Source of the DNA: an uncultured Hyphomicrobiaceae bacterium
GTDB lineage: Bacteria; Pseudomonadota; Alphaproteobacteria; Rhizobiales; Methyloligellaceae
Assembly (NCBI GenBank): GCA_964454415.1
Contig: CAYVYD010000001.1
Coordinates: forward strand, 1-40,251
DNA length: 40,251 nt
Direction of reading: 5' to 3'
Numbering within the stretch: position 1 is the first letter of the stretch; every line of letters starts with the position of its first letter. The notes under the pieces were generated by a model. The model was given only the letters and a program-made list of their open reading frames with translations. It did no database searches and was not told the DNA's origin. Positions 4,753 to 38,939 of this stretch are shown piece by piece. The translations under genes and the position numbers were made by a program.

Positions 4753-4828
4753 GGGCGGTTAGCTCAGTTGGTAGAGCACTGTGTTCACATCGCAGGGGTC
4801 ACTGGTTCGAGTCCAGTACCGCCCACCA
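4753..4828 (+). tRNA. tRNA-Val (anticodon CAC)
   Basis: 76-nt cloverleaf folded by hand. Acceptor stem GGGCGGT/ACCGCCC, D arm GCTC-AGTTGGTA-GAGC, anticodon stem CTGTG/CGCAG with loop TTCACAT, and T arm ACTGG-TTCGAGT-CCAGT. Discriminator A and an encoded CCA are present. Confidence 0.95.
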
Positions 4829-6890: not shown

Positions 6891-6947
6891 GGCCGCCGTT
6901 CATGGCGCAGCGAGGCGCTGCCCGCCTGCGGCCGGCCCACCGTCATC

Positions 6948-13654: not shown

Positions 13655-14341
13655 TCAGCGGCTCTTGGGTCCTAATCCGATCGCGAGCAGGTAGTTGGCC
13701 ATCTTGTGGAAGCCCGTATGCACGACCTCGTCGTTCATGGCGAACATGCAGACCGACGAGAAGTGCCGCTCCATCACCGCCTTGAGGTCCGGCATCGACT
13801 TGCAGTTGACGTGACCGGCCTTGCTCTGGGGCGAGGCGTGGGGCTGGGATTCGAGCGACGGCATGCCGATGATGCAGGTGGCCTGCGGCGTCAGCGAGCG
13901 CGCGACGTTGCCCAGGAACCGGTCCTCCTCGGCGGGGGCTATGTGTTCCAGCACGTCGAGCGAATAGGCCGCGTCGTGAACGTCTTGCGTCGGGCCGGCG
14001 AGCATGTCGTGGACCCGGAAATCCACCGGCCACTTGTCGCAGGCCCGCGACGTCGCGTCCTCGATGAAGACCGGATCGAAGTCGACCGCCGTGACGGCCC
14101 CCGCCGCCTGGCGCACGATCCGGGTGCCGAAGCCGTCGCCGCAGCCGACCTCGAGGACCCGGCCCGCGCCCTCCAGCATCTTGGCCACGAATTTGTAGCG
14201 CGAAAGGGTGAAGACCAGCCGCTTGGGATCGTCATGCCAGGTCTGGCTCGTCATCAAGCCAAGCGATTCGAGGCCGCGTTCGCGCGCGTAGTCGACGCAG
14301 AACTGATATTGCGGTTCCTTGGTTTGCCTGTTCTTCGCCAT
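13655..14341 (-). CDS. class I SAM-dependent methyltransferase
   Basis: Motif I VLEVGCGDGFGT and post-I AVDFD, followed by SLDVLEHI. 228 aa. Confidence 0.8.
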   Translation of the reverse strand: MAKNRQTKEPQYQFCVDYARERGLESLGLMTSQTWHDDPKRLVFTLSRYKFVAKMLEGAGRVLEVGCGDGFGTRIVRQAAGAVTAVDFDPVFIEDATSRACDKWPVDFRVHDMLAGPTQDVHDAAYSLDVLEHIAPAEEDRFLGNVARSLTPQATCIIGMPSLESQPHASPQSKAGHVNCKSMPDLKAVMERHFSSVCMFAMNDEVVHTGFHKMANYLLAIGLGPKSR

Positions 14342-14408
14342 CGCCTGGCCGCGTCTTCCTTCCTTGCTCCCGCAGCAGCACGTCCCGCTTGGGCGTTCAA
14401 AGTCAAGT

Positions 14409-15095
14409 CTAAGTGATGAGCGTTTCCGGATCGGCCTCGAGAATCGTCCAGTAATAATCGCCCGAATAACCGGCCGAGGAAAACATCTCCTTCCAGTCCT
14501 CCGGCGATCCGTGGGTGAGCGCGGTCAGCATCCAGTCCTCGAACAGCCGGCGCTCTTCGGCCGAGCGGTAGGCGTCGACCTGGACGAAGCCGCGGCCCGG
14601 TGCCAGGCGTTCGATCTCGGCCAGCGCCCGCAGGCAGCGCGCGCGCTCGAGGTTGTGGACGGTGTTGATGGAGACCACCGCGTCGAAGCTGCCGTCGGCG
14701 AAGGGCAGCCGGTCGGCGGTCCCCGCCACCAGACGGCCCGCCGCCTCTTGCGGAGCCCGCGCCAGCGCGTAAAGAGAGATGTCGAGGCCGTAGACCTCGA
14801 GGCCGGGACAAGCGCCGAGCAGGTCCTTCACCAGAAACCCCTTGGCGCAGCCCACGTCGAGCACCCGCTCCCCCGGCTTCAGCCCGAAATGATCGATGAG
14901 GCGGTGCGCCACGGGAACCCAGCGCCCGTCGTAACGGTAGCCGCCATAGCCCTGTTCCCGGCTGCCGTCGAAATAGGCCTTGCCGAAGGCGAGCGCGGCA
15001 TGCCGGTTGCGCGCCTTCTCGCGGCGCCGGGCGGCGACGTTCCGCTTGATCTTTTTCGGCAGCGCCTCGAGCAGATTGATCTCGCGCCCCATCAC
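14409..15095 (-). CDS. class I SAM-dependent methyltransferase
   Basis: Motif I VLDVGCAKGFL, then YGLDIS and FDAVVSINTVHN. Either a GTG at 15095 or an ATG at 15092 overlaps the upstream TGA. Confidence 0.8.
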   Translation of the reverse strand: MMGREINLLEALPKKIKRNVAARRREKARNRHAALAFGKAYFDGSREQGYGGYRYDGRWVPVAHRLIDHFGLKPGERVLDVGCAKGFLVKDLLGACPGLEVYGLDISLYALARAPQEAAGRLVAGTADRLPFADGSFDAVVSINTVHNLERARCLRALAEIERLAPGRGFVQVDAYRSAEERRLFEDWMLTALTHGSPEDWKEMFSSAGYSGDYYWTILEADPETLIT

Positions 15096-15979
15096 CCCAC
15101 CTCGGCGACCTCTGCATGGGCGGCCTCCAGCCCCTCTTCGAGCGGCGTTGCGGCGAGATCTGGAAAGGCTTGCCTCATCGCGCTCACGTCGAACCGGCGG
15201 TGGGTGATCGGAAACTGGCGCGGCGAGCCGGCGATCTCGATCTCGCGCGGGAACGCTCCGGCGACCAGCTCGGCCACGCGCCGGAAGCTCTCCGAGCGGC
15301 CGCTCGCCAGGTTGAGGAGGCCGCGCGAGCGGTGGCGGACGACCTCGGCGATCACGGCGGCCGCGTCGGCGACGAACATGTGGTCCCGCGTCTCCTCGCC
15401 CTCGCCTCCGAGCGAAATCCTGCCCGTCTCAGCCGCCTGGCGGCGAAACCAGTTGGGGCCGTAGGAGCCGTGCGTGTCGCCCTCGCCGTAAAGCAGCGTC
15501 GGGCGCAGCACCGCGAGCGGCATCTCCTTGCAGGCGTCCTGGAAGATGAGTTCGCGGGTCCGGTGCATCGCCGCGTAGAGGTCGCCGGGCTCGGCGGGCG
15601 TCTCCTCGCTGACGGTCTCGCTGCGGAACGAATAGACCGCATCCGAGCTCAGATAGACCACCTGCGCGACCGGCCGTTCGGCGAGCGCCGCGCAGACCTG
15701 CTCCGCCATTCTCAGATTCCGCATCAGCGTCGCCACGTCGCGGCCGCGGTCGGGCGTCAGCGCCGCCAGCATCACCAGGGCATCGCCCTCTCGGAGCATG
15801 CCCGCGAGCTTCTCCGCGGCGCCGTCGGCGGCAAGATCGACCTCGTTGCTCGAAAGCGCGATATGAGCCGCCCCCTCGCCCGCAAGCCGCCGGCACAGCG
15901 CCGATCCGAGGAACCCGCTCGCCCCCGCCACGACGACCCGCTCGGGCATGGCGGGTTTCTCGTTCAGATGCTCCAACAC
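15092..15979 (-). CDS. NAD-dependent epimerase/dehydratase family (extended SDR) with an atypical active-site motif
   Basis: VVVAGASGFLGS Rossmann motif and an SSDAVY segment. The expected YxxxK reads YAAMH. Start options are a GTG at 15979 or an ATG at 15949. Confidence 0.75.
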   Translation of the reverse strand: MLEHLNEKPAMPERVVVAGASGFLGSALCRRLAGEGAAHIALSSNEVDLAADGAAEKLAGMLREGDALVMLAALTPDRGRDVATLMRNLRMAEQVCAALAERPVAQVVYLSSDAVYSFRSETVSEETPAEPGDLYAAMHRTRELIFQDACKEMPLAVLRPTLLYGEGDTHGSYGPNWFRRQAAETGRISLGGEGEETRDHMFVADAAAVIAEVVRHRSRGLLNLASGRSESFRRVAELVAGAFPREIEIAGSPRQFPITHRRFDVSAMRQAFPDLAATPLEEGLEAAHAEVAEVG

Positions 15980-15994
15980 AAAACTCCCTCCGGC

Positions 15995-17281
15995 TCAGGC
16001 CCGGCGAAGCGCCGGCCGGCCCAGCGTGTAATGGTCCATCCCCGCCTCGCGCACGCGCCCGCCGTCGAGCACGCCATAGGGGTCGATGACGATGCGCCCG
16101 CGCATCGCCGCCGCCAGCGCCGCCACATCGACCGCGCCGTAATCGGGCCAAGGGGTCATGATCAGCAGCGCGTCCGCCCCTTCCGCCGCGCCGAGCGGGC
16201 TTGTTGCCTCTTCGAGCCGGGGATGATCGAGCCCCTCGGCCGGGACCACCGGATCGTGGACCCGCACCCGCATATCGCCCAGCTGGGCGATGGTGGCAAG
16301 GGCGGGAGAGTTCTTGGTCGAATTGGTGTTCTCCTTGTAGGCGAGGCCCCAGACCGCCACCAGCCGCCCGCCGTTCTCCGTGCCGAGATTTTCCCGCAAT
16401 GTTCGCGCCGCCCAGGCGCGCCGGTGACGGCTGTTGGCGAGCCACGCCGCCACCACGCCTGCGTCGGTTCCGTGCTGGGCGGCAAGACGGCTGACGGTGG
16501 CGAGATCACGCTCCAGATTGCCGCCGGCCAGGCCCAGGCCCGGCATCAGATAGGCGTGGTCGCCGATGCGGCGGTCGAGCCTCAGCGCCGGCACGATCTC
16601 CCGCCAATCCGCCCCCGTCTTCTCGCACAGCTCCGCCATCGTGTTGGCGACGCCGATCGAGCCGGCGAGACACATGTTGATGGCGATCTTGGCGAGCTCG
16701 GCGCTCTCATAGGCCATCGGCAGGATCGGACAGCCGAAGGCTTCGAGAAAGTGGCGATAGGGCGCGGGCAACGGCTCGGTCGGATCGGCGCAGCCGACGA
16801 TGAAGCGCTCGGGCTCCATCGCCCGCTCCATCGCCCGCCCGAAGATCAGCGTCTCCACCTGATAGTGGAGCGCGAGCCCCGCCTTCGCGCGCCGCCGCGT
16901 GTAGCCGGGCGGCACCTGCGCCAGGATCACGAGGGTAGCGTCCGGCCGCAGCGCCGGCATGACCGTTTCGATCAGCCCGTCGAGGGCGGCGAGATCGCTC
17001 ATGCCTTCATCGTCGGTGGCGACGTCGAGCGCGGCGAAGACCACATCGCGGGCGCCGAGATCCGCGGCCTCTGCGCTGAAACGCAGCCGGCCGCGGTTGG
17101 CGGCGGCGAGCTTCTCAAGACCCGGCTCGCTGATCGCGAAGGCGCCCTCGGTGCAGCGGGCGGCCCGCGCGCCGTCCAGGTCGAAGCCCACCGTCTCGAA
17201 CCCCTTGGCCGCGCTGGCGACGGCCGAGACCGTGCCGAGATGCGACAGGCCGGCGAAGCCTATCTTCGGGTTGTCGCTCAC
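15995..17281 (-). CDS. UDP-glucose/GDP-mannose dehydrogenase family protein (divergent)
   Basis: KIGFAGLSHLG N-terminal Rossmann motif, a central DRRIGDHAYLMPGLGLAGGNLERD segment, and a C-terminal nucleotide-sugar-binding-type region. A GTG at 17281 gives a GTGA overlap with the upstream stop; an alternative GTG lies at 17305. Confidence 0.8.
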   Translation of the reverse strand: MSDNPKIGFAGLSHLGTVSAVASAAKGFETVGFDLDGARAARCTEGAFAISEPGLEKLAAANRGRLRFSAEAADLGARDVVFAALDVATDDEGMSDLAALDGLIETVMPALRPDATLVILAQVPPGYTRRRAKAGLALHYQVETLIFGRAMERAMEPERFIVGCADPTEPLPAPYRHFLEAFGCPILPMAYESAELAKIAINMCLAGSIGVANTMAELCEKTGADWREIVPALRLDRRIGDHAYLMPGLGLAGGNLERDLATVSRLAAQHGTDAGVVAAWLANSRHRRAWAARTLRENLGTENGGRLVAVWGLAYKENTNSTKNSPALATIAQLGDMRVRVHDPVVPAEGLDHPRLEEATSPLGAAEGADALLIMTPWPDYGAVDVAALAAAMRGRIVIDPYGVLDGGRVREAGMDHYTLGRPALRRA

Positions 17282-18216
17282 CCGCCCGCGCCCTGCGCGC
17301 AGCACGCCGCGCCGAGGCGCTCGAGCAGGCCGTCGATGAGGATATCGCGGGAGAGGTCCGTCTGCGCCTTGGCCGCGATCAGTTCCTTGAAATAGTCGTA
17401 CTCAGCCTGCCAGGTGGGGTCGTCCTGAACCAGCGTCACGCGCTCCTCGGGTGGGCGGCCCGAGGGGAGCACGCGCCGGCGCCGGATGAAGGTCGCCGGA
17501 CCCCATTTGCAGAGCGAGGAGATGTGCGCGCTCCCCTCCTCCGCGAGCACGTCGCAGGTGAAATGGTTGCGCCACATCAATAGCGTCATCTCGAGCTCGC
17601 AGCGGGGGCTCGCCGTGGTGCTGCCGAGCACCACGTGATCGGGCGCGGCGTTCTCGAACCGGTCGGCCGAGACCAGCTCCAGTCCCTCCAGCGCCGCCTC
17701 GCCGAACCAGAAGAGCAGCGTGTCGAGAAGGTGGGAGCCGAGGTCGCCGAGCACGCCGCTCCCTTCATCGCGCCAGTTGGATTCGCGCACCAGCCGCGCC
17801 GTGCCGTTGCCGTAGAACATCCGGCACCGGTAGATGCGGCCGAGCTCGCCCGAGGCGACCAGGTCCCGCATGCGCAAGAAATGGGGCTCGAAGCGGTGAT
17901 TGTAGGCGGTGTAGCAGACCGCCCCCTTTTGCCGCGCCAGCGCCTGGAGCGCCGCGATCTCCTTGCCGCCGCCGTCCGCGAGCGGCTTCTCGACGAGCAC
18001 GTGCTTGCCGTCGCCGATGAGATAGGTGAGAAGGCCGAGCTTGGCGGCATCCGGCACGCAGGCCAGCACCGCGTCGTAGGCATCGAGCGGAACCTCGGCG
18101 ATATCGCGGTATTGGGCGGCCTTGTTTTCCGGGTCTACCGTGGCGACGACGTCGCCCGCCGCGATCCGCGCGCGCTTGGTCCCCTGCACGCCAAGGCCGA
18201 CGACCGCGACACGCAT
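17278..18216 (-). CDS. Gfo/Idh/MocA family oxidoreductase
   Basis: MRVAVVGLGVQGTKR N-terminal Rossmann motif and the EKP motif (LVEKPLA) typical of this family. The ATG at 18216 lies 1 nt after the upstream TGA. Confidence 0.85.
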   Translation of the reverse strand: MRVAVVGLGVQGTKRARIAAGDVVATVDPENKAAQYRDIAEVPLDAYDAVLACVPDAAKLGLLTYLIGDGKHVLVEKPLADGGGKEIAALQALARQKGAVCYTAYNHRFEPHFLRMRDLVASGELGRIYRCRMFYGNGTARLVRESNWRDEGSGVLGDLGSHLLDTLLFWFGEAALEGLELVSADRFENAAPDHVVLGSTTASPRCELEMTLLMWRNHFTCDVLAEEGSAHISSLCKWGPATFIRRRRVLPSGRPPEERVTLVQDDPTWQAEYDYFKELIAAKAQTDLSRDILIDGLLERLGAACCAQGAGG

Positions 18217-18217
18217 C

Positions 18218-19809
18218 TCACGCCCCACGCGAGGCCGATTGTCCGTCCTTGTCCCGCTCGTCCGCGATCAGCTGGAAGTTGGCCTGGGCCTGCAACCGCT
18301 GGATGCGCTGCCGCACGTCCTCGGGCGAGATCGGCACGTTGCCGTTGACCTCGCATTCTGCCGCCGCCGCCATGGCGCCCAGCACCGCGGCGATCACCGG
18401 GTTGCCGCCCGCCAGATGGCTCAGCGTCGCATAGGCGAGCAGCGCGTCGCCCGCCCCCACCGCGTCGACCACGCGCTCGGCGAAGCTGTCGAGCGCGAAG
18501 AAGGAACGCAGATCGTCGAGGTCGTTGCGGCTGCGGTAGCAGAGCAGGCCGCGGCGGCCGAGCTTCAAGATCAGGTTGCGGCAATTGGACGCCTCGAACA
18601 GGCGCCGCGCCAGCGGCCGGATCACCGAATCCTGGTCCCCCAGCGCGAACCGGGCCTCGCGCTCGTTGGGCGTGATCAGATCGAAATTCTGGAACTCTGT
18701 GATGTTGCCCCAGCGGCTCGCCACCTGGCTGTCGGCCACCTTGAAGAGACCGCTCGGAATGGCGGCGGCGAGCGTCGGTATGGTGTCGTGGTTGAAGATG
18801 CCGTGCCTGAAATCTGCGAACACGATGGCGTCGCCCTTGGTCGCCTCGACCGCCTGGGAAAACCGCTCGAAGATGCTCCCGGTGATCACCCTGTTGTCCA
18901 CCGTGTCGATCTTGAGCAGGCGCGTGTTCTCGCACACGATCGCGTTCTTGTGGGTCGTCGGCCGCGAATGATCGACGATGGCGTTCACCTCGACGCCCGC
19001 GGCCTCCAGGTCGTCGAGCACGAACTCCTTCCATTGGTCGTCGCCCAACAGCGTCGTGAAGCTGACCTTGGCGCCGGCCGCGCGCAGATGCTTGGCGACG
19101 ATGCCGGCCCCGCCGACGAAATGATGCTGGGATTCGTTACGCACCGAGATGGTGGGCGTCTTGCTCTGCCCGCCGATCATCGTCGTCTCGGTCAGCGTGT
19201 CGACGATGGTGTCGCCCACCACGTGGACCTCGAAGCGGCCCATGTCCTCCAGGGTGCGGCGCAAGTCGTCGAAGGTGAGGCCCTCGGCATCGAACAGCGA
19301 GAGCACCTTGTCGACCGCGAGATTGGGCGGCGATTCCTCGATCAGCTTGGAGGAGGAGTAGACGACGTCGCCGGGGGTGAAGATGATCTCGCCGCCATAG
19401 GCGTCGAGCACCGCCTTTTCCTCCGCCGTCTTGGGATGCAGGCCGCCCTCGGTATATTCGTAGCCCTTGGCGAAATAGTCCGGCTTCAGGATTTGCAAAT
19501 TCTCCAGCGGCGTGCGGTTGCGGTCGATCAGCACGTAGTCCACCGCGTGCAGCGCTGCCAGGTTCATCGCCCGCAGCGCCTCCGGCACGAAGGGGCGGAA
19601 ATGCGCCTTCTCGATATAGTCGTCGGTGGTGAGACTGGCGACCAGAATGTCGGCCTGCTGCTTGGCGTAGATCAGATGCCGCACGTGACCGGGATGCACC
19701 ACGTCGAAGGTGCCGTGGCACATGATGACCTTGCGCTTGCGCGGCGGCTGGCCGATGATTTCGGCCAATTCTTCGACCGTTCTTATTTTTTCTTTGTATT
19801 CGCCCGAAA

Positions 19810-19813
<4 letters not shown>
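18218..19813 (-). CDS. bifunctional nucleotidyltransferase (RfaE domain II-like, N-terminal) / PfkB sugar kinase (RfaE domain I-like, C-terminal)
   Basis: aa 32-43 read CHGTFDVVHPGH, the HxGH motif of the cytidylyltransferase superfamily. FRPFVP...VDYVLI...KPDYFAKGYEY resembles HldE domain II. aa 195-500 resemble the PfkB family, with DAVGAGD at 450-456. ATGA overlaps occur at both gene ends. Confidence 0.85.
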
Positions 19814-20816
<1,003 letters not shown>

Positions 20817-20820
<4 letters not shown>

Positions 20821-21818
20821 GCCGCCTGGAGCGATTTCAGCGTCCTTACGTTGAAATAGACGTCGTCGCTCATGCTGTTGGGCAGGTCGCCCCGCTTGAA
20901 GGCGCGGCACAGATCCACGACCGCGTCCTCGATGGAATGACGGGGGCTGAAGCCGAGCTCGTCGTGGATCTTGTCCGAATTGATGTGATAGGAGCGGATG
21001 TCGTCGCTCGGCGTGGTGGCGATCTCGATCTCGCCCTTCTCGGGGAATTCCCGCCCGACCACGCGCTTGACGATCTGAGCGATCTCCATGATCGACATGT
21101 TCTCATAGCCGCAATTGAAGGTCTTGCCGGCGATATTCTCGCCGTCGATCTCGATCAGCAGCTTGTAGAGATCGCACATGTCCTGGACGTGCAGATTGGG
21201 CCGAAGCTGGCTGCCGCCGAAGACCGTGATCTTGCCGTTGTTGACCGCGTGATTGGTGAGGATGTTGACCGAGACGTCGAGCCGCTGGCGGGGCGCGTAG
21301 CCGCACAGCGTCGCCGGACGGATGACGGTGCAGACGAAATCATTCGACTGATGCTTGAACAGCAGCGGCTCGCACTGGCCCTTGTATTTGTTGTAGAGCG
21401 TCAACGGCACGAGGGGGTGATCCTCCCGCACGTTGGGCTCGTCGGAGACGCCGTAGACCGAGCTCGAGGAGGCGTAGATGAAACGCCTCACCCCCGCCTC
21501 CTTCGCGGCGATCACTCGCGGCTCGAAGGCCTCGAGATTGACCGTCGTCGAGAGGCTCTCGTCGAGATCGAAGCTCGCGTCGTTGGAGATGCAGGCGAGA
21601 TCGATCAGCACGTCGACGCCGGCGCACGCCGCCGCGAACGCCTTCACGTCGCGTATGTCGCTCTTGATCAGGGTGAAGTGGGGATGATCGTGCGGCAGAA
21701 AGCCGTCGCCGAAATAGCAGATGTCGTAGGCGGTGACCTTGTATCCCAGCTCCAACAGCTGGGGACAGAGCAGGCTGCCCACATACCCCCCGCCGCCCGT
21801 CACAAGCACATGTTTCAC
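20817..21818 (-). CDS. NAD-dependent epimerase/dehydratase (extended SDR)
   Basis: MKHVLVTGGGGYVGS Rossmann motif, an SSSSVYG segment and the catalytic motif YNKYK. 333 aa. Confidence 0.85.
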
Positions 21819-21864
21819 GCTTCGGTCCTGAATGTTGTTGTTGGTCTTGCGCGCGATCGCCCCG

Positions 21865-22605
21865 TCAGGCGACGCTCCGTTTGAGCTTCAGCGTATCGAT
21901 GGCGTAGCCGGCCGCCGTGGCGTCCCGATAGAACATATCCACCGTCTCGCGGGAATACTCGTCCAGATCCTTCCCCACGAGATGGAGCTTGGCCAGAATG
22001 TCGTTGGTCACCGTGATGATGTGGCAGCCGACGGCGTCGGCGTGGAACAGGTTGAGCAGCTCCCGCGGGCTCGCCCACAGCAGCTCCGCCTTCGGCCGTT
22101 CGCGCAGAATTTCCAGTGCTTGCGCCATGTGCGGCGCCGGATCGACGCCGGTGTCGGCGACGCGGCCGGCGAACACCGACACGATCGCCGGCGTCTCTGG
22201 ATCGAGAGCGTCGCTTACGGCGCGCACCTGGTCGAGCGACAGGATCGCGGTCGCGTTCACCACCACGCCCTGCCGCGACAGGCGTCCGATCAGCCCGCAG
22301 GCGGACTCGCCGCGCGTGTTGGTGATCGGGATCTTGACGTTGACGTTGGCGCCCCAGGAGGCGATCTCGAGCGCTTGGCGCTCCATTTCGTCAAAGTCGT
22401 CCGCCAGCACCTCGAGCGAGACCGGCATGTCCGTGACTTCGCCGAGCAGCGTCCGGGCAAAGGCCTCGTAGTCCTCGACCCCCGCCTTGCGCATCAGCGT
22501 TGGATTGGTCGTGACCCCCTTGATCAAGGGATCGCGGCTCAGCTTCAGAATGCTTGGAAGATCCGCCCCGTCGGCAAAAATCTTGATTGAAAGACTTTCG
22601 GCCAT
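21865..22605 (-). CDS. transaldolase family protein (short TalC/FSA-type)
   Basis: ATG at 22605 (MAESLSIKIFADGADL). GVTTNPTL and NVKIP (Schiff-base Lys context) are typical of the ~220-250-aa transaldolase/fructose-6-P aldolase subfamily. Confidence 0.8.
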   Translation of the reverse strand: MAESLSIKIFADGADLPSILKLSRDPLIKGVTTNPTLMRKAGVEDYEAFARTLLGEVTDMPVSLEVLADDFDEMERQALEIASWGANVNVKIPITNTRGESACGLIGRLSRQGVVVNATAILSLDQVRAVSDALDPETPAIVSVFAGRVADTGVDPAPHMAQALEILRERPKAELLWASPRELLNLFHADAVGCHIITVTNDILAKLHLVGKDLDEYSRETVDMFYRDATAAGYAIDTLKLKRSVA

Positions 22606-22660
22606 GCCCCCGCCCCGCAAGATTCACGCAATACTTGTATTGAGTGTTAGCAACTCTCGT

Positions 22661-23197
22661 TCAACGAGACAATATCCAGCCCGCCGCCGCGCCGAGTCCT
22701 CCACATACGAAATCGGGGTCGCTGGGAGCGGATTCCTGCTCATAGGACTGGTCTATGAATATGGTGCGGCAACCGGCCCGCTTGCCGGCCTCCACGTCGC
22801 TGGCCCGGTCGCCTACCATGAAGCTCGCCCGTAAATCCAGGCCCATCGCCGCCGCCGCGCTTTGCAGCATGGCGGGCGCCGGCTTGCGGCATTGGCACCC
22901 CTCGTCCCGGCCATGGGTACATACCTCGATTCGGTCGATCGGCAAGGCCGAGTTGAGCTCAGCGTGCATGGCCTCCAGCGCGTCCGCCGAGATCAGACCG
23001 CAGCCGACGTCCGGCTGGTTGGTCACCACCACCAGCGCGAAACCCGCCGCGCGCAGGTCTTCGAGCGCGGCGGCCGCCTCGGGATAAATCCGGAAGTCCT
23101 CGATACTGCGCGGTGCGAAGGACCGCCCATCGCGGAACTCGGGGATGACGATAACCCCGTCGCGGTCGAGAAAGACCGCTCTTCTAGTCCCTACCAC
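22661..23197 (-). CDS. gmhB: D-glycero-D-manno-heptose 1,7-bisphosphate phosphatase-like HAD hydrolase
   Basis: AVFLDRDGVI, VVVTNQPDVG, the Zn-finger-like CTHGRDEGCQCRKP and MVGDRASD all match the GmhB pattern. There is no ATG; a GTG at 23197 overlaps the gmhA-like stop by 7 nt. The start is uncertain. Confidence 0.75.
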   Translation of the reverse strand: MVGTRRAVFLDRDGVIVIPEFRDGRSFAPRSIEDFRIYPEAAAALEDLRAAGFALVVVTNQPDVGCGLISADALEAMHAELNSALPIDRIEVCTHGRDEGCQCRKPAPAMLQSAAAAMGLDLRASFMVGDRASDVEAGKRAGCRTIFIDQSYEQESAPSDPDFVCGGLGAAAGWILSR

Positions 23198-23775
23198 GTC
23201 GTCGCCTTGGTTTGCAGGTCGGGATGCGAGACCAGGCAATGCCAGACCACCGCCTGAAACGCTTCCGTATGCGGCGTCACCCGATCGTCGTGCGCTTTGG
23301 GCACCACGACCACGGCGTCCCCGACCTTCCTTGCGTAGCCGCCGTCGCGCCCGACGATCCCGAAGATACCGGCGCCCCTCCGCCTTGCCAGCTCCAGCGC
23401 CCGCACCAGGTTGGCGCTGATGTTCCGCTCCAGATCGCCGCCGCCCACCGACATCACGAAGACGCCGTCGTTCTCGTTGAGCCGGCTCGTCTCGAGCCAG
23501 GCCGCGAACACGCTCTCCCATCCCTCGTCATTGGTGCGCGCGGTCAGCTCCGAGACGTTGTCGGTGGCGCAATAGGCCTCGATGCCGCAGAGCTTGCGGA
23601 AATCGTTGACGGCGTGCGAGCAATTGCCGGCGCCGCCGCCCACTCCCAGCATGAAAAGCCGTCCGCCGCGCTCCCGCAGCGCGGCGAGCGCCTGGGCCAG
23701 CGCCTCGACGTCCTTCGGCGGAATTGCCGCGGCGATGCGCGAGACCTCGCTCATATAGGTCTTGGCGTGGGACAT
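23191..23775 (-). CDS. gmhA: SIS-domain sugar-phosphate isomerase (phosphoheptose isomerase-like)
   Basis: ATG at 23775 (MSHAKTYMSEV...). SIS motifs are RLFMLGVGGGAGNCSHAVNDF and VFVMSVGGG. It sits adjacent to the gmhB-like gene. This is a divergent GmhA type, so the exact substrate is an inference. Confidence 0.7.
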   Translation of the reverse strand: MSHAKTYMSEVSRIAAAIPPKDVEALAQALAALRERGGRLFMLGVGGGAGNCSHAVNDFRKLCGIEAYCATDNVSELTARTNDEGWESVFAAWLETSRLNENDGVFVMSVGGGDLERNISANLVRALELARRRGAGIFGIVGRDGGYARKVGDAVVVVPKAHDDRVTPHTEAFQAVVWHCLVSHPDLQTKATTW

Positions 23776-23976
23776 TGGTACTTTGTCTTGCTCGCTCTCC
23801 GGCGCGCTCCCGCCGCGGCGGACTTGTGACGCCTTCCAATTGCGAATATGCATACCAGCCTTGGACGGTTCGCGCATTGATTGTCTTGGCCGTGCGGGAC
23901 AAGTTCATCGTGCGCCTCCTCGCCGGTCGGGCACGCCGGTCGTCCCCCGGCCGGGCGCCCAACAGCAGGCTTGCGC
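23776..23976. promoter_or_regulatory. divergent intergenic control region between the two largest operons
   Basis: 201-bp non-coding gap between divergent starts at 23775 (-) and 23977 (+). It contains a locally AT-rich patch with the perfect palindrome TATGCATA (23847-23854) and a duplicated TTGTCTTG octamer. Confidence 0.45.
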
Positions 23977-24993
23977 ATGCACAAGGAAATTCGTGATCGC
24001 GGAAGCGTTGCCGATGCCGGCGGCCCGCTCGCGGGCGAGCAACTGCTCGCCATGCACAGGGATTTGCTTCGCTTGAGGGCCACCGAGGAGACCATCGCCC
24101 GCCGCTACCGCGACCAGGAAATGCGGACGCCGACTCATCTGGGCACCGGCCAGGAGGCGGTCGCCGTCGGCGTGGCCGCCGCCTTGATGCCCGACGACGT
24201 GGTCTACAGCCACCACCGCAGCCACAACCACTATCTCTCCCGGGGGGGAAGCGTCTATCGGTTGGCGGCGGAGCTCTATGGGCGCGCCGACGGCTGCGCG
24301 GCCGGGCGCGGCGGTTCGGTCCACCTCACCGCCCGGGACGTTGGCTTCGTGGTCTCGAGCGCGATCCTCGGCGAGACCGTCGCCGTCGCCACCGGAAGCG
24401 CGCTCGCCTTCAAGATGGACGGCGCTCCGCGCGTCGCGGTCACCTTCTTCGGCGAGGCAACGCTGGAAGAAGGCATCATCTACGAGGCCATGAACTACGC
24501 CGCGATCAAGGCGCTTCCGGTCGTCTTCGTCTGCGAGAACAACCTCTACTCCACCGAAAGCCCGCTCGAGACCCGCCAGCCAGCCGGCACGCGGCTTTGC
24601 GCGCGGGCCGAGAGCTTCACCATCCCCGCCCGCCAGGTGGACGGCAACGACGTCGCCGCGGTCGCCGCTGCGGCGCGCGAAGCGGTCGACCGCGCGCGCT
24701 CGGGTGCCGGCCCTTCCTTCATCGAATGCACGACCTATCGCTGGCGCGAGCATGTGGGGCCGCTGTTCGACTGGGAGGCGGACCGCAGCTACCGCTCGCG
24801 GGCGGAGCTCGAGGAGTGGATAAAGCGCTGCCCGGTGGAGCGGAGCGCAAGGCGCCTGGCCGAGCTCGGCCTGGCGGGCGAGGACGAGCTCGCCGCCTGG
24901 CGCGATGAGGCATTCGCCTCCGTCGAGGCCGATTTCGAGCGGGCGAGCCGGGCGCCCTGGCCCGACGCCGCCGACCTCTTCGACAACGCTTGA
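23977..24993 (+). CDS. thiamine-diphosphate-dependent dehydrogenase E1 component, alpha subunit (AcoA/PdhA-like)
   Basis: ATG at 23977 (MHKEIRD...). HLGTGQEAVAVG and the ThDP-binding stretch FFGEATLEEGIIYEAMNYAAIKALPVVFVCENNLYS are present. The canonical motif is GDG...NN. Confidence 0.85.
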   Translation: MHKEIRDRGSVADAGGPLAGEQLLAMHRDLLRLRATEETIARRYRDQEMRTPTHLGTGQEAVAVGVAAALMPDDVVYSHHRSHNHYLSRGGSVYRLAAELYGRADGCAAGRGGSVHLTARDVGFVVSSAILGETVAVATGSALAFKMDGAPRVAVTFFGEATLEEGIIYEAMNYAAIKALPVVFVCENNLYSTESPLETRQPAGTRLCARAESFTIPARQVDGNDVAAVAAAAREAVDRARSGAGPSFIECTTYRWREHVGPLFDWEADRSYRSRAELEEWIKRCPVERSARRLAELGLAGEDELAAWRDEAFASVEADFERASRAPWPDAADLFDNA

Positions 24994-25023
24994 GCGGGCT
25001 GACGCAGTGACGCCGGGATCGCG

Positions 25024-26058
25024 ATGAGACTTCTCAAATACCACCAGGCCATTTCCGAGGGCACGGTTCAGGCGATGGAGCGGGACGAGAACGTCTTTTG
25101 CGCCGGCATCGCCGTCGACTACCCCTCCGGCATTTTCGGCACCACCAGCAAGGCGCTCGCACGCTTTGGGCCCGAGCGCGTCTTCGACACGCCCGCCATG
25201 GAGAACGCCTTCACCGGCATCTGCATCGGCGCCGCCGCCATGGGCAAGCGGCCGATCATGGTGCACCCGCGCAACGACTTCATGTTCCTGGCCTTCGACC
25301 AGCTCATCAATCTGGGCGCCAAGTGGCGCTACATGTATGGTGGAGGGGCGGGTTCCGTTCCCGTCGTCGTCCGCGCCGTGATCGGCCGCGGCTGGGGCCA
25401 GGGCGCAACCCACTCGCAAAGCCTGCAGGCCCCGCTCGCTCATTTCCCGGGGCTCGCCGTGGTGATGCCGGCGACGCCGGCCGACGCCAAGGGGCTGCTG
25501 CTGGCGGCCTGCCGCCACGACCGCCCCGTCGTCATCCTCGAGCATCGCGCTCTTTACGGCCTCGAGGGTGACGTTCCCGAGGCGCCGGTGGAGACGCCGA
25601 TCGGCAAGGCGAACGTGCTGCGCCAAGGCAACGACCTCTCGATCGTCGCCACCTCGCTGATGACCCAGGAGGCGCTGACCGCGGCCGACGAGCTCGCCAG
25701 GCACGGCATCGGCGCCGAGGTCGTGGATCTGCGCTCGATCCGGCCGCTGGACGAGGAAACGGTGCTCGCCTCGGTCGCCAAGACGGGGCGCGCCATCGTC
25801 GCCGATACGAGCTGGGAGCTGTGCGGCGTGGCGAGCGAGATCGCCGGGCTCTTGGCCGAGAAGGCGTTTTCCCACCTCAAGGCGCCGGTCCGCCGCCTGG
25901 CGCTTGCCGACTGCCCCGCCCCGGTATCGCTCGTCCTCGAGCAAGCCTTCTACCCCCGCGCCTCGACCATCGCCAGGCTGGCGCTGCACGTGATGGGGGC
26001 CGACCCCGACGCCGTCGGCGAGATCGACGCCGAGGACGACTTCAAGGGGCCATATTAG
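25024..26058 (+). CDS. E1 component beta subunit (transketolase-like pyrimidine-binding and C-terminal domains)
   Basis: VFDTPAMENAFTGICIGAAAMGKRPIM and a C-terminal VVDLRSIRPLD motif, both typical of E1 beta. 344 aa. Confidence 0.85.
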   Translation: MRLLKYHQAISEGTVQAMERDENVFCAGIAVDYPSGIFGTTSKALARFGPERVFDTPAMENAFTGICIGAAAMGKRPIMVHPRNDFMFLAFDQLINLGAKWRYMYGGGAGSVPVVVRAVIGRGWGQGATHSQSLQAPLAHFPGLAVVMPATPADAKGLLLAACRHDRPVVILEHRALYGLEGDVPEAPVETPIGKANVLRQGNDLSIVATSLMTQEALTAADELARHGIGAEVVDLRSIRPLDEETVLASVAKTGRAIVADTSWELCGVASEIAGLLAEKAFSHLKAPVRRLALADCPAPVSLVLEQAFYPRASTIARLALHVMGADPDAVGEIDAEDDFKGPY

Positions 26059-29969: not shown

Positions 29970-31730
29970 TCAATCCTGCATGTCGAAGTTCGACCAGGAC
30001 CGCTCCATGATGTCGCGCAGCCGGCCCGCGGGCATGTTCCAGATGTTGATGCGCCGCTGGGAGAACAGATCGGAGCGGCTGATCTCTGGAATGAGTTCAC
30101 GGAACTCCGGCGTGCGCCAGGGATCGAAATTGACGCTGATCGTCTTGCCCGTCAGTCCGCGATAGGCGGGCGAGAGCAGGGCGCGCACGCAGTCGATCGT
30201 GTTCTCCAGCAGCGCGCCTCCCTCCTTCAGCACGGCTTTGGTCTTGCGGTAGTGGCGGCGCCCCGCGCGGTCCTCCCCCGCGGCCATCGTCGGTTCGTGG
30301 ATGGGGCTCGCCACCATGCCGGGCGCGATCGCGTTCACCATGATGCCGTCCCCCGCGAGCTCGAGCGCCAGGGTCTCGGTCAAGCGGACCACACCCGCTT
30401 TCGCGGCGGCGTAGGCCGAATAGTTGGGAAAGGGCGTGAACGCGCCGCCGCCGGCGAAATTGATGATATGCGGCCGCTTGGCCTCCTTCATCAACGCGAT
30501 GCAGTGCTTGCAGGTCAGGAACGGGCCCCAGAGATCGGTCTTAAGGGTCTCGAGCCATTCCATCTCGTCCACCTGCCGGATATCGCCGACGGGCCCCATT
30601 TCGGCGGCGCAATTGATCAGCGCGTCGACGTGACCGAACGCGCCCGCGACCTGTTCGAAAAACGCCCCGACCGCATGATTGTCCGCCACGTCGCATGCCG
30701 CGTGGCGCACGCCGCCGCCCGCTGCCGCGGTCGCCTCGAGCTCGGCCTCGCGGCGCGCGCAAATAAACAGAGCGTGTCCGTCCGCGGCAAGCGCCTGCGC
30801 CAAACTGGCGCCGATGCCCGAGCTGGCGCCGGTGATCACGATGTTGAGTAGTCCCTCGGTCTGGAACGCCTCGCTGTCGGTTTGGCCGTCCCAGGCCCTG
30901 CTCAGGTTCAAGCCGATCTCGTCGATGCTATGCCGCCGTGGCGACGCCACGCTGAAAGGCTGCAGGCTGCGGCCGAGCGCGCCGCCGGAGCTCCATCCGC
31001 GCTTCACCCGCACATCCCAAAACAGCCGCGCCATGGTCGCCGCGACGCTCGCCAGGTTGCGGACCGTGACCGCCTTCGACTTGCCGGCCCTGCGCTCGTC
31101 GATCGGCAGCGCGACCTCGATATAGCTCAGGCCCAACGCAATTCCCTTCAGCAACGCTTCGGCCTGAAAGCCGAAACCGCCGGTTGTGATGGGCTCTAGG
31201 TCGAGGAACGTCTTCGGATAGATCGTCAGGCCGTTGTAGTAGTTCAGCCTATGGCCGAAGAGCAGGTTGAGCAGCAGCGTATAGGCCCGCGATAGCCCGC
31301 GCCGGAACGCCGGCCGCACCTCCGGGTTCGAGCTGTAGGAGGTGACGATGTCGGATTTTCCGAGATTGCTGAACAGCTGGACGAAGGAGCGGTAGGGCCA
31401 GGTGTTGTCGCCCGGAACGTAGGTGAAGTAGTGCTTGGTGCCGCGCTTGAGGCCCTCCACGTAGGATCGTCCCAGTCCGAGGCTCCTGTCGTGATGGATC
31501 GCCTCGACCGCCTCGAATTTGGCGGCGAGGTCGTCCGCCTCCTCGCGCGTGCCGTCCGTGCTCCCGTCGTCGACGATGATGATCTCGTAGTCGTCCACGG
31601 TGATGTCGAGCGCGCGAACGAGCCGCTCGATCGTCGGCCTGAGATTGCCCGCCTCGTTGAGCGCCGGCACCAGTACGGTGAGCGAGGGATTGAGCAGGAT
31701 CGGCGTCCTGTCGGTCGACGGTTCTGGCAT
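29970..31730 (-). CDS. fusion protein: GT2 polyprenyl-phosphate glycosyltransferase-like domain (N-terminal) plus classical short-chain dehydrogenase/reductase (C-terminal)
   Basis: aa 15-245 read LTVLVPALNEAGNL...IIIVDDGSTDGT...PIDERRAGKSK, a DPM1/ArnC/GtrB-like pattern. aa 295-535 read VITGASSGIG...NCAA...YAAAK...NAIAPG, a classical SDR pattern. No TM helices are evident. Confidence 0.85.
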   Translation of the reverse strand: MPEPSTDRTPILLNPSLTVLVPALNEAGNLRPTIERLVRALDITVDDYEIIIVDDGSTDGTREEADDLAAKFEAVEAIHHDRSLGLGRSYVEGLKRGTKHYFTYVPGDNTWPYRSFVQLFSNLGKSDIVTSYSSNPEVRPAFRRGLSRAYTLLLNLLFGHRLNYYNGLTIYPKTFLDLEPITTGGFGFQAEALLKGIALGLSYIEVALPIDERRAGKSKAVTVRNLASVAATMARLFWDVRVKRGWSSGGALGRSLQPFSVASPRRHSIDEIGLNLSRAWDGQTDSEAFQTEGLLNIVITGASSGIGASLAQALAADGHALFICARREAELEATAAAGGGVRHAACDVADNHAVGAFFEQVAGAFGHVDALINCAAEMGPVGDIRQVDEMEWLETLKTDLWGPFLTCKHCIALMKEAKRPHIINFAGGGAFTPFPNYSAYAAAKAGVVRLTETLALELAGDGIMVNAIAPGMVASPIHEPTMAAGEDRAGRRHYRKTKAVLKEGGALLENTIDCVRALLSPAYRGLTGKTISVNFDPWRTPEFRELIPEISRSDLFSQRRINIWNMPAGRLRDIMERSWSNFDMQD

Positions 31731-37881: not shown

Positions 37882-38385
37882 TTACCCTCCCGGCCCCAGC
37901 AGCCACAGCGATTTGAGCCAATCGAACCCCCGCGCCACCGCCTTGCCGCGCCGCGTCAAGCGGTAACCGGAGCCTGCGGGCGCGATGTAGCCGCCCGCGG
38001 CCATGCCGGCGAGCCGCGCTTCGATAAAGGCCGGCGAGGTGAACGTCGCGGCCAGTCTTTCCTCCTCGACATGACCGTCCGGACGGCTGGCGAGTAGCCG
38101 CAACGTTTCGACTGAGAGCGAATGGGTCAGCGTGTAGATCAAGGGCATGTAGAGGACGACGAGACCCAGGAATGCGAGTTCGCCCCACAGGACCGCCGTG
38201 ATTGTTCCACCAACGCCCGGCGGCGCGCCGGCCGCCGCGACGACGGCGATGAGGAGGGCGAATGCCGGGACCAGCTTGAGGGCGAGGGGTCCGCGCTCGA
38301 TGCCGCGGGTAACGCGCGGCGACAGGAGATGCAGCCCAGCGAACAGGGCGAAGCAGAGGACCCCGATGGCGGCGGCGGCCGTCAC
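37882..38385 (-). CDS. small membrane protein with a C-terminal winged-helix-like domain (P167)
   Basis: 167 aa with three N-terminal hydrophobic segments, then ...ARLAGMAAGGYIAPAGSGYRLTRRGKAVA, a wHTH wing-like pattern. It is a paralog of the upstream gene and overlaps it as ATGA. Confidence 0.65.
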   Translation of the reverse strand: MTAAAAIGVLCFALFAGLHLLSPRVTRGIERGPLALKLVPAFALLIAVVAAAGAPPGVGGTITAVLWGELAFLGLVVLYMPLIYTLTHSLSVETLRLLASRPDGHVEEERLAATFTSPAFIEARLAGMAAGGYIAPAGSGYRLTRRGKAVARGFDWLKSLWLLGPGG

Positions 38386-38939
38386 TCTTCAGCCGCCTCT
38401 CGTTCCGGCCGGCCCGGCCCCAACATCGCTTGCGCCCGCCCGAGCGCCCTGGCCAGCCGCGAACCCTTCGGCGTGATCGCGACGTCGCCTCCCCGCCGTT
38501 CGATCAGGCCGAGGCCGCGCATACCAGCCAAACGCTTCTCATACATCCAGGCAAGCCCGTGCCCCGCGCCGTAGGATTTTGCGATATCCGCTGCCGACAT
38601 AGCACGCGGTTCGGCATCCAGCATATCGATCAGAATGCGCAGGGAAAGTCCCCGCTCGGCCAGGTTGTAGAGTTGCAGCAGACCGCCCCAATAGCCGGAA
38701 ATGTAGAGAAAAACCGCGAACGCCAGATCGCAGGCGGCCGGGGCCGCGAGCACGTCTTGCGGCAGCATCCACAGATCGTCCGGGGTCGCGAGGTGGAGCG
38801 CGACGAGGCTCGCCAGCCCGGCTCCAAACAGGCCGGCGAGCGATCGGAAACGATGCTTCCCGGAGATGCCGCGCAACAGGCCCGTCATCGCTGCCGCGGT
38901 CCCCAATCCCATTGCGGCGGCCAACAGCAGCGCTTTCAT
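38382..38939 (-). CDS. small membrane protein with a C-terminal winged-helix-like domain (P185)
   Basis: 185 aa with N-terminal hydrophobic segments, then LRILIDMLDAEPRAMSAADIAKSY...RLAGMRGLGLIERRGGDVAITPKGSRLARAL. Confidence 0.65.
   Translation of the reverse strand: MKALLLAAAMGLGTAAAMTGLLRGISGKHRFRSLAGLFGAGLASLVALHLATPDDLWMLPQDVLAAPAACDLAFAVFLYISGYWGGLLQLYNLAERGLSLRILIDMLDAEPRAMSAADIAKSYGAGHGLAWMYEKRLAGMRGLGLIERRGGDVAITPKGSRLARALGRAQAMLGPGRPEREAAEE

Follow-up and report, generated by a model that had tools for sequence, protein, structure and literature searches.

A stand-alone E1-type enzyme pair among sugar-nucleotide genes, a candidate for C2 branching of a keto-sugar in surface glycan assembly

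We analyzed a 40,251-nucleotide stretch of DNA from an uncultured Hyphomicrobiaceae bacterium (contig CAYVYD010000001.1, hereafter the window; 63-70% GC) with a focus on two adjacent plus-strand genes that encode the α- and β-subunits of an enzyme resembling the thiamine diphosphate (ThDP)-dependent E1 component of 2-oxoacid dehydrogenases. Genes were mapped by open reading frame (ORF) calling, filtered on GC content at third codon positions (GC3), and by Pfam and NCBIfam scans. The E1α-like ThDP-binding subunit (23977..24993, 338 amino acids [aa]) matches Pfam E1_dh (5.8e-65). Its mechanical ORF begins at TTG 23881, and ATG 23977 was chosen as the start, since the homologs have 330-340 aa. 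The E1β-like subunit (25024..26058, plus strand, 344 aa) contains the domains Transket_pyr (2.3e-27) and Transketolase_C (2.5e-38), and its matches in the PDB are E1β structures, at around 1e-65. With a GC3 of 0.86 for E1α and 0.90 for E1β, and with hundreds of homologs at 60-74% identity, these genes are not chance ORFs.

An earlier reading of this DNA, made from the sequence only, had described the pair as opening a plus-strand operon in which the genes for two membrane proteins, P753 and P540, follow directly. The gene map confirms this layout: E1α and E1β are separated by 30 nt and E1β and P753 by 55 nt, while the P753 and P540 genes overlap. Between E1α and P753, no terminator-like site was found. 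Upstream, a 99-nt divergent intergenic region separates E1α from a minus-strand gene for a SIS-domain isomerase. The scan for regulatory sites returned no promoter-like site and fewer terminator-like sites than in shuffled sequences, but is uninformative at 65-70% GC. For riboswitches or other RNAs near the operon, Rfam gave only a tRNA at 4753-4825.

As judged by alignment, the catalytic hallmarks of an E1 enzyme are all intact in the pair, namely the ThDP-Mg motif, the Glu of the DTPxxE motif in the β-subunit, and the His residues of both subunits; the roles of these Glu and His residues are established for E1p. E1α carries the signatures HHRSHNH (24211-24231), CENNLY (24532-24549), and YRWREHVGP (24736-24762). 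E1β has its ThDP-activating Glu within the stretch DTPAMEN (25186-25206), and THSQS (25408-25422) contains its active-site His. Both β motifs and YRWREH of the α-subunit align with solved E1s, and the pair shows the α and β domains by which the heterotetrameric 2-oxoacid dehydrogenase E1 superfamily is defined. The ThDP-Mg motif consists of G159-E160-A161 (24451-24459) and N188-N189 (ending at 24543), exactly where the sequence-only reading had placed it, and fits the superfamily pattern G-[DE]-[GA]-X26-N-N. In a phmmer alignment, FFGEATLEEG...CENNLY occupies the same columns as YGDGAANQG...CENNRY of human PDHA1. The same reading had singled out the G-E-A triplet as a variant. This variation is real but ordinary: the E1α of human branched-chain 2-oxoacid dehydrogenase (BCKDH; 1dtw and related PDB entries) reads YFGEGAASEGD...CRNNGY and thus has a native GEG, and among relatives of the window pair the triplet is GDA in L001 (71% identical), GEA in L005 and L012, GEG in L006, L008, and L009, and GDG or GDA in most others. 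Since D/E and G/A alternate among such close relatives, a special ThDP motif was ruled out.

Judging by model scores, the pair is not an equivalog of pyruvate dehydrogenase (PDH). E1α scores 279 bits against TIGR03182 (cut-off 394), and E1β scores 299 bits against NF006667 (cut-off 321) and 282 bits against NF008854 (cut-off 454). The latter, a fused-type E1β model of 464 positions, is covered at positions 146-456 only, and its extra N-terminal part is presumably a lipoyl-like domain. Neither an E2 (lipoyl/2-oxoacid_dh) nor an E3 (Pyr_redox) was found among the large ORFs of the window in Pfam or NCBIfam scans, and a motif scan of the window gave zero DHRxxDG, E3 disulfide, or lipoyl-attachment motifs, which bears out the claim of the sequence-only reading that both partners are missing here. 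In 84 related loci (85 sequences, 1.48 Mb), the motif scan confirmed no E2 or E3 either. It returned four matches, of which three were dismissed as false (an antisense ORF, a P-type ATPase, and an O-methyltransferase) and one, a DHRxxDG in L059, is unchecked. A functionally linked E2/E3, named in that reading as the finding that would speak against it, was thus not found in the window and not confirmed in any of the related loci. Because both subunits score below the NCBIfam cut-offs and E2/E3 are lacking from the window and the 84 loci, we do not regard the pair as a housekeeping PDH. Acetoin-type neighbors (acoC, acoL, acetoin catabolism) are not found beside the E1 genes, where sugar-nucleotide and membrane glycosylation genes lie instead. 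The original description as AcoA/AcoB- or PdhA/PdhB-like therefore holds for superfamily, fold, and residues, but not for PDH scores or acetoin context.

A search at the protein level yielded thousands of homologs. The top 120, at 59-74% identity, derive mostly from Alphaproteobacteria (Azospirillaceae, Stellaceae, Skermanella), and bear generic database names such as “pyruvate/acetoin dehydrogenase”. An alignment of 25 homologs yielded the E1α signatures CENNLY[AS]T and TYRWREHV, for which human PDHA1 reads CENNRYGMGT and TYRYHGHS. Scanning one genome per species for these signatures, we detected confirmed relatives in at least 590 species genomes. The carriers comprise Proteobacteria, Bacteroidota, Bacillota, Rokubacteria/Methylomirabilota, Planctomycetota, Chloroflexota, and Actinomycetota, as well as metagenome-assembled genomes (MAGs) labelled as archaeal or as candidate phyla radiation (CPR). 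A neighbor-joining tree with one outgroup places a long branch between the family and human PDHA1, and the actinomycete members nest inside the family. E1α shares about 36% identity with PDHA1, compared with 47-50% with the actinomycete members. By its signatures, the window pair belongs to a distinct E1 family.

The actinomycete members (48-57% identical) are located among genes for NDP-hexose 2,3-dehydratases, dTDP-sugar 3,5-epimerases, GFO-type reductases, and EryCIII-type glycosyltransferases (GTs), a set that corresponds to 2,6-dideoxysugar pathways. One of them (L045) is the pair AFJ52686.1/AFJ52687.1 of Micromonospora okii TP-A0468, named “Pyruvate dehydrogenase alpha/beta-subunit”. This strain is the producer of kosinostatin (PMC8698034), and the kosinostatin cluster deposited for it, JN038178.1, has protein accessions of the form AFJ527xx. 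Additionally, the 90%-identity cluster of the L045 E1β contains QLQ36611.1 of M. robiginosa, a protein within the stretch annotated there as the kosinostatin cluster (QLQ36600 to QLQ36639). The kstD genes of kosinostatin synthesize a branched deoxy-octose (PMC7918784). Over the full length, the window proteins are 50% (E1α vs. AFJ52686.1, 2e-102) and 55% (E1β vs. AFJ52687.1, 4e-111) identical to this pair, and hence akin in sequence to a pair from a branched-sugar cluster. The E1β of the window ends in F-K-G-P-Y (26047-26055), that of the kosinostatin cluster (P0174) in F-H-G-P-Y, so that a conserved C-terminal tail is suggested by these two sequences.

Synteny was assessed between 31 window proteins and the 84 related loci by de novo ORF clusters, Pfam on cluster representatives, and gene maps; counts out of 80 refer to genome loci. 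E1β adjoins E1α in 77 of the 80. The E1 genes stand among sugar genes nearly throughout the 84 loci, so that the reservation of the sequence-only reading, that orthologs might never occur at glycan loci, does not apply. In the window, the complete cassette, on the minus strand, comprises the SIS isomerase, a HAD-IIIA phosphatase, a transaldolase, two short-chain dehydrogenases/reductases (SDR333 and SDR366), a nucleotidyltransferase-kinase, a GFO/IDH/MocA (GFO) oxidoreductase, an enzyme like UDP-glucose dehydrogenase (UGDH), an RmlD-like SDR, and a methyltransferase. In related loci, cassette and E1 pair usually form one co-directional operon. They occur together in Alphaproteobacteria (L001, L003, L007 from Azospirillum sp. 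BE72, L010, and L012), in a Bacteroidota MAG (L014), in Bacillota MAGs (L017, L027), in Candidatus Finniella (L018), and in Rokubacteria/Methylomirabilota MAGs (L015, L021, L023, L025, L026, L028), and partially in a Nitrosocosmicus MAG (L024). Homologs of SDR333 (≥43% identity) are present in 25 of the 80 loci, always on the strand of E1, at 12 bp to 7.5 kb from E1α and often abutting it (12-77 bp). A small GT of family 2 (GT2; about 250 aa) is found in 23 loci, often directly after E1β, and HldE-like kinase/nucleotidyltransferase and SIS genes are likewise among the widespread partners. DegT aminotransferases accompany the pair in 15 loci, and radical-SAM/SPASM genes were seen in 12 (L032, L047, L051, L052, L062, L064, L065, L066, L070, L072, L078, L082); both hint that other phyla tailor the branched sugar further and in different ways. 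Upstream of E1α in six loci from Rokubacteria/Methylomirabilota and Nitrosocosmicus MAGs (L021, L024, L026, L028, L029, L033), we observed opposite-strand HbpS-like and Haem_oxygenase_2/TENA_THI-4-family genes. TenA-type proteins act in thiamine salvage, so such a neighbor would suit a ThDP enzyme.

Because the synteny with sugar genes extends across phyla, because no E2/E3 was confirmed in the 84 loci, and because the subunits share 50% and 55% identity with the kosinostatin pair, we propose that the window pair is a stand-alone α2β2 ThDP carboligase that adds a C2 branch to a nucleotide-activated keto-sugar, to which we assign a probability of roughly 0.6. The pair stands alone within a nucleotide-sugar cluster that would be able to supply such a keto-sugar. 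The E1 enzyme would decarboxylate pyruvate, the presumed donor, to hydroxyethylidene-ThDP, and the C2 unit would then be added to the carbonyl of the keto-sugar, leaving a C-acetyl tertiary alcohol. A reductase may subsequently turn the acetyl branch into a 1-hydroxyethyl group. AcoAB without E2/E3 condenses pyruvate and acetone to methylacetoin, a tertiary acyloin (PMC3744081), which makes the addition of a C2 unit to a ketone by an E1-type enzyme plausible. The idea of the sequence-only reading, that a C2 unit is transferred onto a keto-sugar made by neighboring oxidoreductases, thus gains from synteny, from the missing E2/E3, and from the kosinostatin kinship, while the function itself stays a proposal drawn from sequence comparison.

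The competing explanation that the genes encode the normal E1 of a catabolic pyruvate or acetoin dehydrogenase, with E2/E3 elsewhere and placed beside a glycan locus by chance, would agree with homolog names such as “TPP-dependent pyruvate/acetoin dehydrogenase” and “acetoin dehydrogenase” (TPP, thiamine pyrophosphate) and with the fact that all catalytic residues are intact, including those for lipoyl reduction. Yet the scores below the PDH cut-offs, the operonic synteny with sugar genes across many phyla, the E2/E3 result for the 84 loci, the presence of the family in MAGs labelled CPR or archaeal, and an identity of 50-55% to the kosinostatin pair against about 36% to PDHA1 bring this explanation close to refuted.

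For the proposed branching of a keto-sugar, the acceptor would be made by the divergent operon (13655-23877, minus strand), which contains family-level counterparts for LmbR, N, P, K, O, M, L, and Z of the lincosamide octose pathway. Next to the E1 genes lie the SIS-domain sugar-phosphate isomerase (GmhA/LmbN-like; 23191..23877; Pfam SIS_2; TIGR00441 gmhA at 1.6e-12, below cut-off) and the HAD-IIIA phosphatase (GmhB/LmbK-like; 22661..23197; NCBIfam histidinol-phosphatase domain at 3e-38 and GmhB models). The phosphatase probably starts at GTG 23197 (mechanical ORF 22661-23521), with a 7-nt overlap with the SIS stop that is likewise seen in L001. They are followed by a small transaldolase/FSA-type enzyme (21865..22620; TIGR02134, 331 bits, cut-off 282), by SDR333 (20817..21818, 333 aa), and by the extended SDR epimerase/dehydratase SDR366 (19810..20820; Pfam and NCBIfam), whose PDB matches are GalE and UXS. 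The probable start of SDR366 at ATG 20820 (mechanical ORF 19810-20910) forms an ATGA overlap with the SDR333 stop. The start overlaps at GTG 23197 and ATG 20820 suggest tight translational coupling along the operon. Further along lies an HldE-like protein with an N-terminal nucleotidyltransferase and a C-terminal PfkB kinase (18218..19813; Pfam CTP_transf_like and PfkB; NCBIfam rfaE domains I and II). Its domain order is opposite to that of the NCBIfam HldE model PRK11316; L001 and L003 have the same order as the window. According to the gene maps, SDR366 almost always adjoins the kinase/nucleotidyltransferase, and it is possibly an HldD-like heptose epimerase. A role of SDR366 as UXS-like hepturonate decarboxylase was dropped on chemical grounds, the β-position being ring C5.

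The remaining genes of the cassette encode a GFO oxidoreductase (17278..18228; Pfam and NCBIfam; the family class of sugar 3-dehydrogenases and presumably of LmbZ), a nucleotide-sugar dehydrogenase of the UGDH family (15995..17305; TIGR03026, 197.6 bits, cut-off 189.8), to which LmbL presumably also belongs, an RmlD-like SDR reductase/epimerase (15092..15979; Pfam Epimerase and RmlD_sub_bind; NCBIfam), and the S-adenosylmethionine-dependent methyltransferase MT_a (14409..15095; Pfam), which often adjoins E1 elsewhere at 43-71% identity. In addition, an FkbM methyltransferase and a second methyltransferase flank a GT2 gene (12564-13598, minus strand) that was hidden in a longer ORF of low GC3; its call begins at an internal Met, MSFSLSVILPNL...

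The best solved relative of SDR333 is PDB 6vo6 (7e-31, about 33% identity, YxxxK aligned; runner-up 5e-22), which, from its N-terminal sequence and PDB code, we take to be Cj1427. Cj1427 is a GDP-heptose C4-dehydrogenase that yields GDP-4-keto-heptose without dehydration (PMC10680097). We propose, based on these family assignments, that SIS isomerase, PfkB kinase, GmhB-like phosphatase, and nucleotidyltransferase would make an NDP-heptose in the manner of HldE, and that SDR333 would oxidize C4 to give the 4-keto acceptor. In lincomycin biosynthesis, octulose-8-phosphate is built by the transaldolase LmbR (PMC4351081). The window transaldolase could either supply sedoheptulose-7-phosphate or act like LmbR and provide octulose-8-phosphate, so that an octose would result instead of a heptose; by its family-level gene content, the operon may indeed make an octose. 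The transaldolase alone does not decide between the two. It is a rare companion of the cassette (≥55% identity in 4 of the 80 genome loci, plus L001/L002). That the acceptor is specifically a 4-keto-heptose or 4-keto-octose is a tentative assignment, to which we give somewhat less than even odds. UGDH-like, GFO, and methyltransferase enzymes would carry out further tailoring.

The higher-carbon character of this operon could also be taken to mean that the E1 enzyme works like DXS or transketolase, transferring hydroxyethyl-ThDP onto the aldehyde of a C6 or C7 sugar, which would give a longer deoxy-ketose by linear extension without any branch. E1, DXS, and transketolase share a fold, the family scans gave weak DXS and transketolase matches, and the locus, with its transaldolase and heptose machinery, aims at higher-carbon sugars. 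However, no enzyme for a sugar aldehyde is evident, the nearest characterized relatives add to a ring C4 ketone, and SDR333 is related to a C4-dehydrogenase, which renders linear extension quite improbable. A similarly slim chance applies to the decarboxylation of a sugar-borne 2-oxoacid, in which the UGDH-like enzyme would create a terminal carboxylate and the GFO enzyme an adjacent carbonyl, so that E1 would shorten or re-functionalize the exocyclic chain. E1 enzymes naturally act on 2-oxoacids, and UGDH-like and GFO genes share an operon in the window and in about 12-14 of the 80 loci. But many loci combine E1 with an SDR333-like gene without UGDH or GFO (L016, L024, L039, L063, L076, and others), the actinomycete relatives have no UGDH, and a conversion of heptose to hexose-dialdose has no obvious purpose.

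Under the preferred reading, the branched sugar would be handed to membrane enzymes encoded further downstream. P753 (26114..28375, plus strand), a multi-pass membrane protein with a C-terminal β-rich domain, is predicted to be a GT-like protein of the GT-C fold. Its AlphaFold2 model has a predicted local distance difference test score (pLDDT) of 83 and a predicted template modeling (pTM) score of 0.85, with AglB, ArnT, AftD, DPY19, PglB, and Pmt4 as top Foldseek matches. P540 (28362..29957, plus strand; 531 aa as database-called, mechanical ORF from GTG 28335), also predicted to be a GT-C-fold membrane protein, was modelled with a pLDDT of 88.6 and a pTM of 0.91 and matched ArnT, STT3, AglB, EmbB, and Pmt4. 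The top matches of both proteins are all GT-C at a probability of 1.0, but with TM-scores of only 0.3-0.5. Acidic residues follow the first transmembrane segment, a nearly invariant E46 in P753 (consensus CDMECGE) and the invariant E44, D69, and D74 in P540. Neither protein has a family match in Pfam or NCBIfam. Two further window proteins, u900 (7663-10365) and u520 (36309-37871), are distant paralogs of P753 (24-26% identity over the N-terminal membrane region), likewise without a Pfam or NCBIfam model. From the predicted structures, P753, u900, and u520 may represent an unclassified GT-C family and P540 a second one.

P753 and P540 had been seen as the glycosylation partners of the E1 pair. 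The models agree with their being GT-like, but as conserved partners they were ruled out, since homologs of each adjoin E1 in 1 of the 80 genome loci; the conserved partners are the heptose/octose genes and the small GT2. Both P753 and P540 recur in islands of the same type, in which homologs of P540, u900, u242, u167/u185, the GT2-SDR fusion described next, and LPG_synthase_TM travel together.

On the minus strand, a fusion of GT2 and classical SDR domains (29970..31730; Pfam Glycos_transf_2 and adh_short) lies beyond P540. The GT2 domain has Dol-P-Man synthase 5mlz as best PDB match (3e-9) and a weak match to ArnC, and the SDR domain is FabG-like. We propose that the fusion joins a polyprenyl-phosphate sugar synthase to a ketoreductase. 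Free-standing classical SDRs adjoin the E1 pair elsewhere (L031, L035, L063, L068, and L076, among others); for this reason and because of its FabG-like character, the SDR domain is our proposed candidate for the reduction of the branch, next to the RmlD-like SDR. In a related island, L087, we observed a triple fusion of methyltransferase, GT2, and SDR (6427-8910, 827 aa). Together, the two fusions suggest that tailoring is coupled to the loading of the sugar onto the lipid carrier. The small protein pair u167 and u185 (37882..38939, minus strand; 167 and 185 aa, three predicted transmembrane segments each, no family match) is kept beside GT2-SDR and the E1 pair, with homologs in L009, L011, L020, L086, and L087, and is a candidate heterodimeric flippase for lipid-linked sugar. 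In the order that we envisage, the GT2 domain would move the sugar to polyprenyl phosphate, the product would be flipped to the far side of the membrane, and the GT-C-fold proteins P753, P540, u900, and u520 together with a YfhO-like protein would use it to decorate what is probably a surface glycan.

The glycan island begins with an ABC exporter, and the tRNA (4753-4825, plus strand) lies between this exporter and a gene for a periplasmic binding protein. Parts of the island (8-13, 19-23, 26-28, and 34-38 kb) have a GC content of only 0.62-0.65, down from about 0.70. tRNA and GC drop are compatible with horizontal acquisition of the island.

Several points weigh against the branching of a nucleotide-activated heptose or octose by the E1 pair. 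A distant E2/E3 partner may exist elsewhere in the genome, beyond the window. The UGDH-like and GFO enzymes have no defined role in the proposed scheme. Our link from SDR333 to Cj1427 depends on recognizing 6vo6 by its sequence and PDB code, its PDB title reading only “putative sugar-nucleotide epimerase/dehydratase”. AviB1/AviB2 and Plm8/Plm9, the E1-type pairs of two actinomycete antibiotic pathways, were assigned by genetics and feeding and not with purified enzyme. We know of no biochemical data for family members outside actinomycetes, nor of a C-branched heptose or octose from the taxa that carry the genes. Finally, three loci whose pairs are 62-66% identical to that of the window (L085, L086, L011) lack the heptose cassette within 10 kb and contain GT2-SDR, GT-C-like, and ordinary GT genes instead, so that the acceptor may differ there or be lipid-linked.

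The last point leads to an alternative in which the C2 unit is added to a keto-sugar already linked to polyprenyl phosphate, with GT2-SDR loading a common sugar and its SDR domain acting as the oxidase. L011 and L086 would fit such a route, as they combine the E1 pair, GT2-SDR, a u185/u167-like pair, and GT-C-like genes in a compact unit whose 10-kb flanks have no heptose cassette (L011 also with LPG_synthase_TM), and so would the small GT2 after E1β in many of the 23 GT2-bearing loci and the triple fusion of L087. On the other hand, the actinomycete relatives belong to NDP-deoxysugar pathways without a lipid carrier, SDR333-like C4-dehydrogenase genes abut E1α in many loci, and the FabG-like fused SDR fits a ketoreductase better than an oxidase. 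Additionally, L011 and L086 may have their heptose genes past the 10-kb flanks. We therefore consider addition at the lipid level unlikely.

Returning to the nucleotide-level reaction, we suggest as a possible outcome, for which the odds remain a little below even, that the locus makes an undescribed 4-C-acetyl- or 4-C-(1-hydroxyethyl)-heptose or -octose, i.e., a branched nonose or decose, by way of a Cj1427-type 4-keto intermediate, polyprenyl phosphate, and unclassified GT-C families, and that a module of E1 pair, C4-dehydrogenase, and GT2 has been passed on horizontally among hundreds of species, MAGs labelled archaeal and CPR among them. In that case, E1-type branching would belong to prokaryotic surface glycans in general and would be no curiosity of actinomycete antibiotics. 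If the family branches heptoses or octoses in surface-glycan loci of many phyla, a class of branched nonoses and decoses not yet reported from the carrier organisms would be predicted, and ThDP carboligases that accept bulky nucleotide-sugar ketones would be available. A genomic marker would then be available in the form of an E1α with TYRWREHV and CENNLY[AS]T beside a Cj1427-like SDR and a small GT2. Further, hundreds of genes labelled “pyruvate/acetoin dehydrogenase E1” are probably misassigned to central metabolism.

To our knowledge, sugar-branching E1-type pairs have been described for only a few antibiotic clusters, all from actinomycetes, and in no case has the purified enzyme been characterized. 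A literature search for E1 pairs in heptose or O-antigen clusters found nothing relevant. PdhA/PdhB and AcoA/AcoB have the same fold, cofactor motif, and catalytic residues as the window pair, which differs from them by its identity to PDHA1, its scores below the equivalog cut-offs, and its glycan context. In Gram-negative bacteria, branching is carried out by YerE, a single TPP-dependent flavoprotein that is unrelated to E1 pairs (PMC4753412). In the yersiniose A pathway of Yersinia pseudotuberculosis, YerE resembles the predicted activity in attaching a pyruvate-derived acetyl branch to C-4 of a nucleotide 4-keto sugar for a Gram-negative O-antigen (PMC4753412). It is, however, a single-chain enzyme of another ThDP fold without homology to the E1_dh and Transket_pyr/Transketolase_C genes of the window. 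Yersiniose-type ThDP enzymes, invoked as precedent in the sequence-only reading along with AviB1/AviB2, are thus analogues and not relatives, whereas pairs of the AviB1/AviB2 type are a precedent for this kind of enzyme. Since YerE is unrelated and is the sole described Gram-negative branching enzyme (PMC4753412), the window case would be new relative to the known systems.

On the acceptor side, modification of the capsular heptose in Campylobacter jejuni follows a common logic, C4 oxidation of an NDP-heptose before tailoring (PMC10680097). C. jejuni uses GDP-α-heptose and only epimerizes, dehydrates, or reduces it, forming no C-C bond, and the identity between SDR333 and 6vo6 is only about 33%. 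The divergent operon also parallels the lincosamide octose pathway, with one family-level counterpart for each of the eight Lmb proteins listed above (Lmb table in PMC4351081). It differs in its HldE-type kinase/nucleotidyltransferase (PfkB and cytidylyltransferase-like) and in having no aminotransferase or thiol chemistry. The E1 pair itself sets the window further apart, as we know of no lincosamide cluster that contains one.

The closest parallels are the actinomycete pairs AviB1/AviB2 (avilamycin eurekanate), Plm8/Plm9, which equal Pau11/Pau12 (paulomycose), and the kosinostatin pair, all of them, like the window pair, α/β E1 enzymes without E2/E3 among nucleotide-sugar genes. AviB1/AviB2 and Plm8/Plm9 are likened here by description, and our sequence comparison covers the kosinostatin pair AFJ52686/AFJ52687. 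Published work credits Plm8/Plm9 (PMC4802897) with linking a two-carbon chain from pyruvate to C4 of a 4-keto sugar, the reaction that we also propose for the window pair, and credits AviB1/AviB2 and Pau11/Pau12 with the same step, after which a separate ketoreductase reduces the acetyl branch (PMC4753412). Window and actinomycete family members share the signatures TYRWREHV and CENN.Y, and the latter nest inside the same clade. Window and actinomycete pairs differ in the host, which is Gram-negative-type and alphaproteobacterium-like for the window, and in the product, predicted here to be a surface glycan and in actinomycetes an antibiotic. The acceptor is predicted to be a heptose or octose prepared by a Cj1427-like dehydrogenase, in contrast to the dTDP-4-keto-2,6-dideoxyhexose or UDP-4-keto-pentose of the actinomycetes. 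Delivery would proceed through GT2, polyprenyl phosphate, and GT-C enzymes in the window, whereas actinomycetes employ a GT1 acting on the aglycone.

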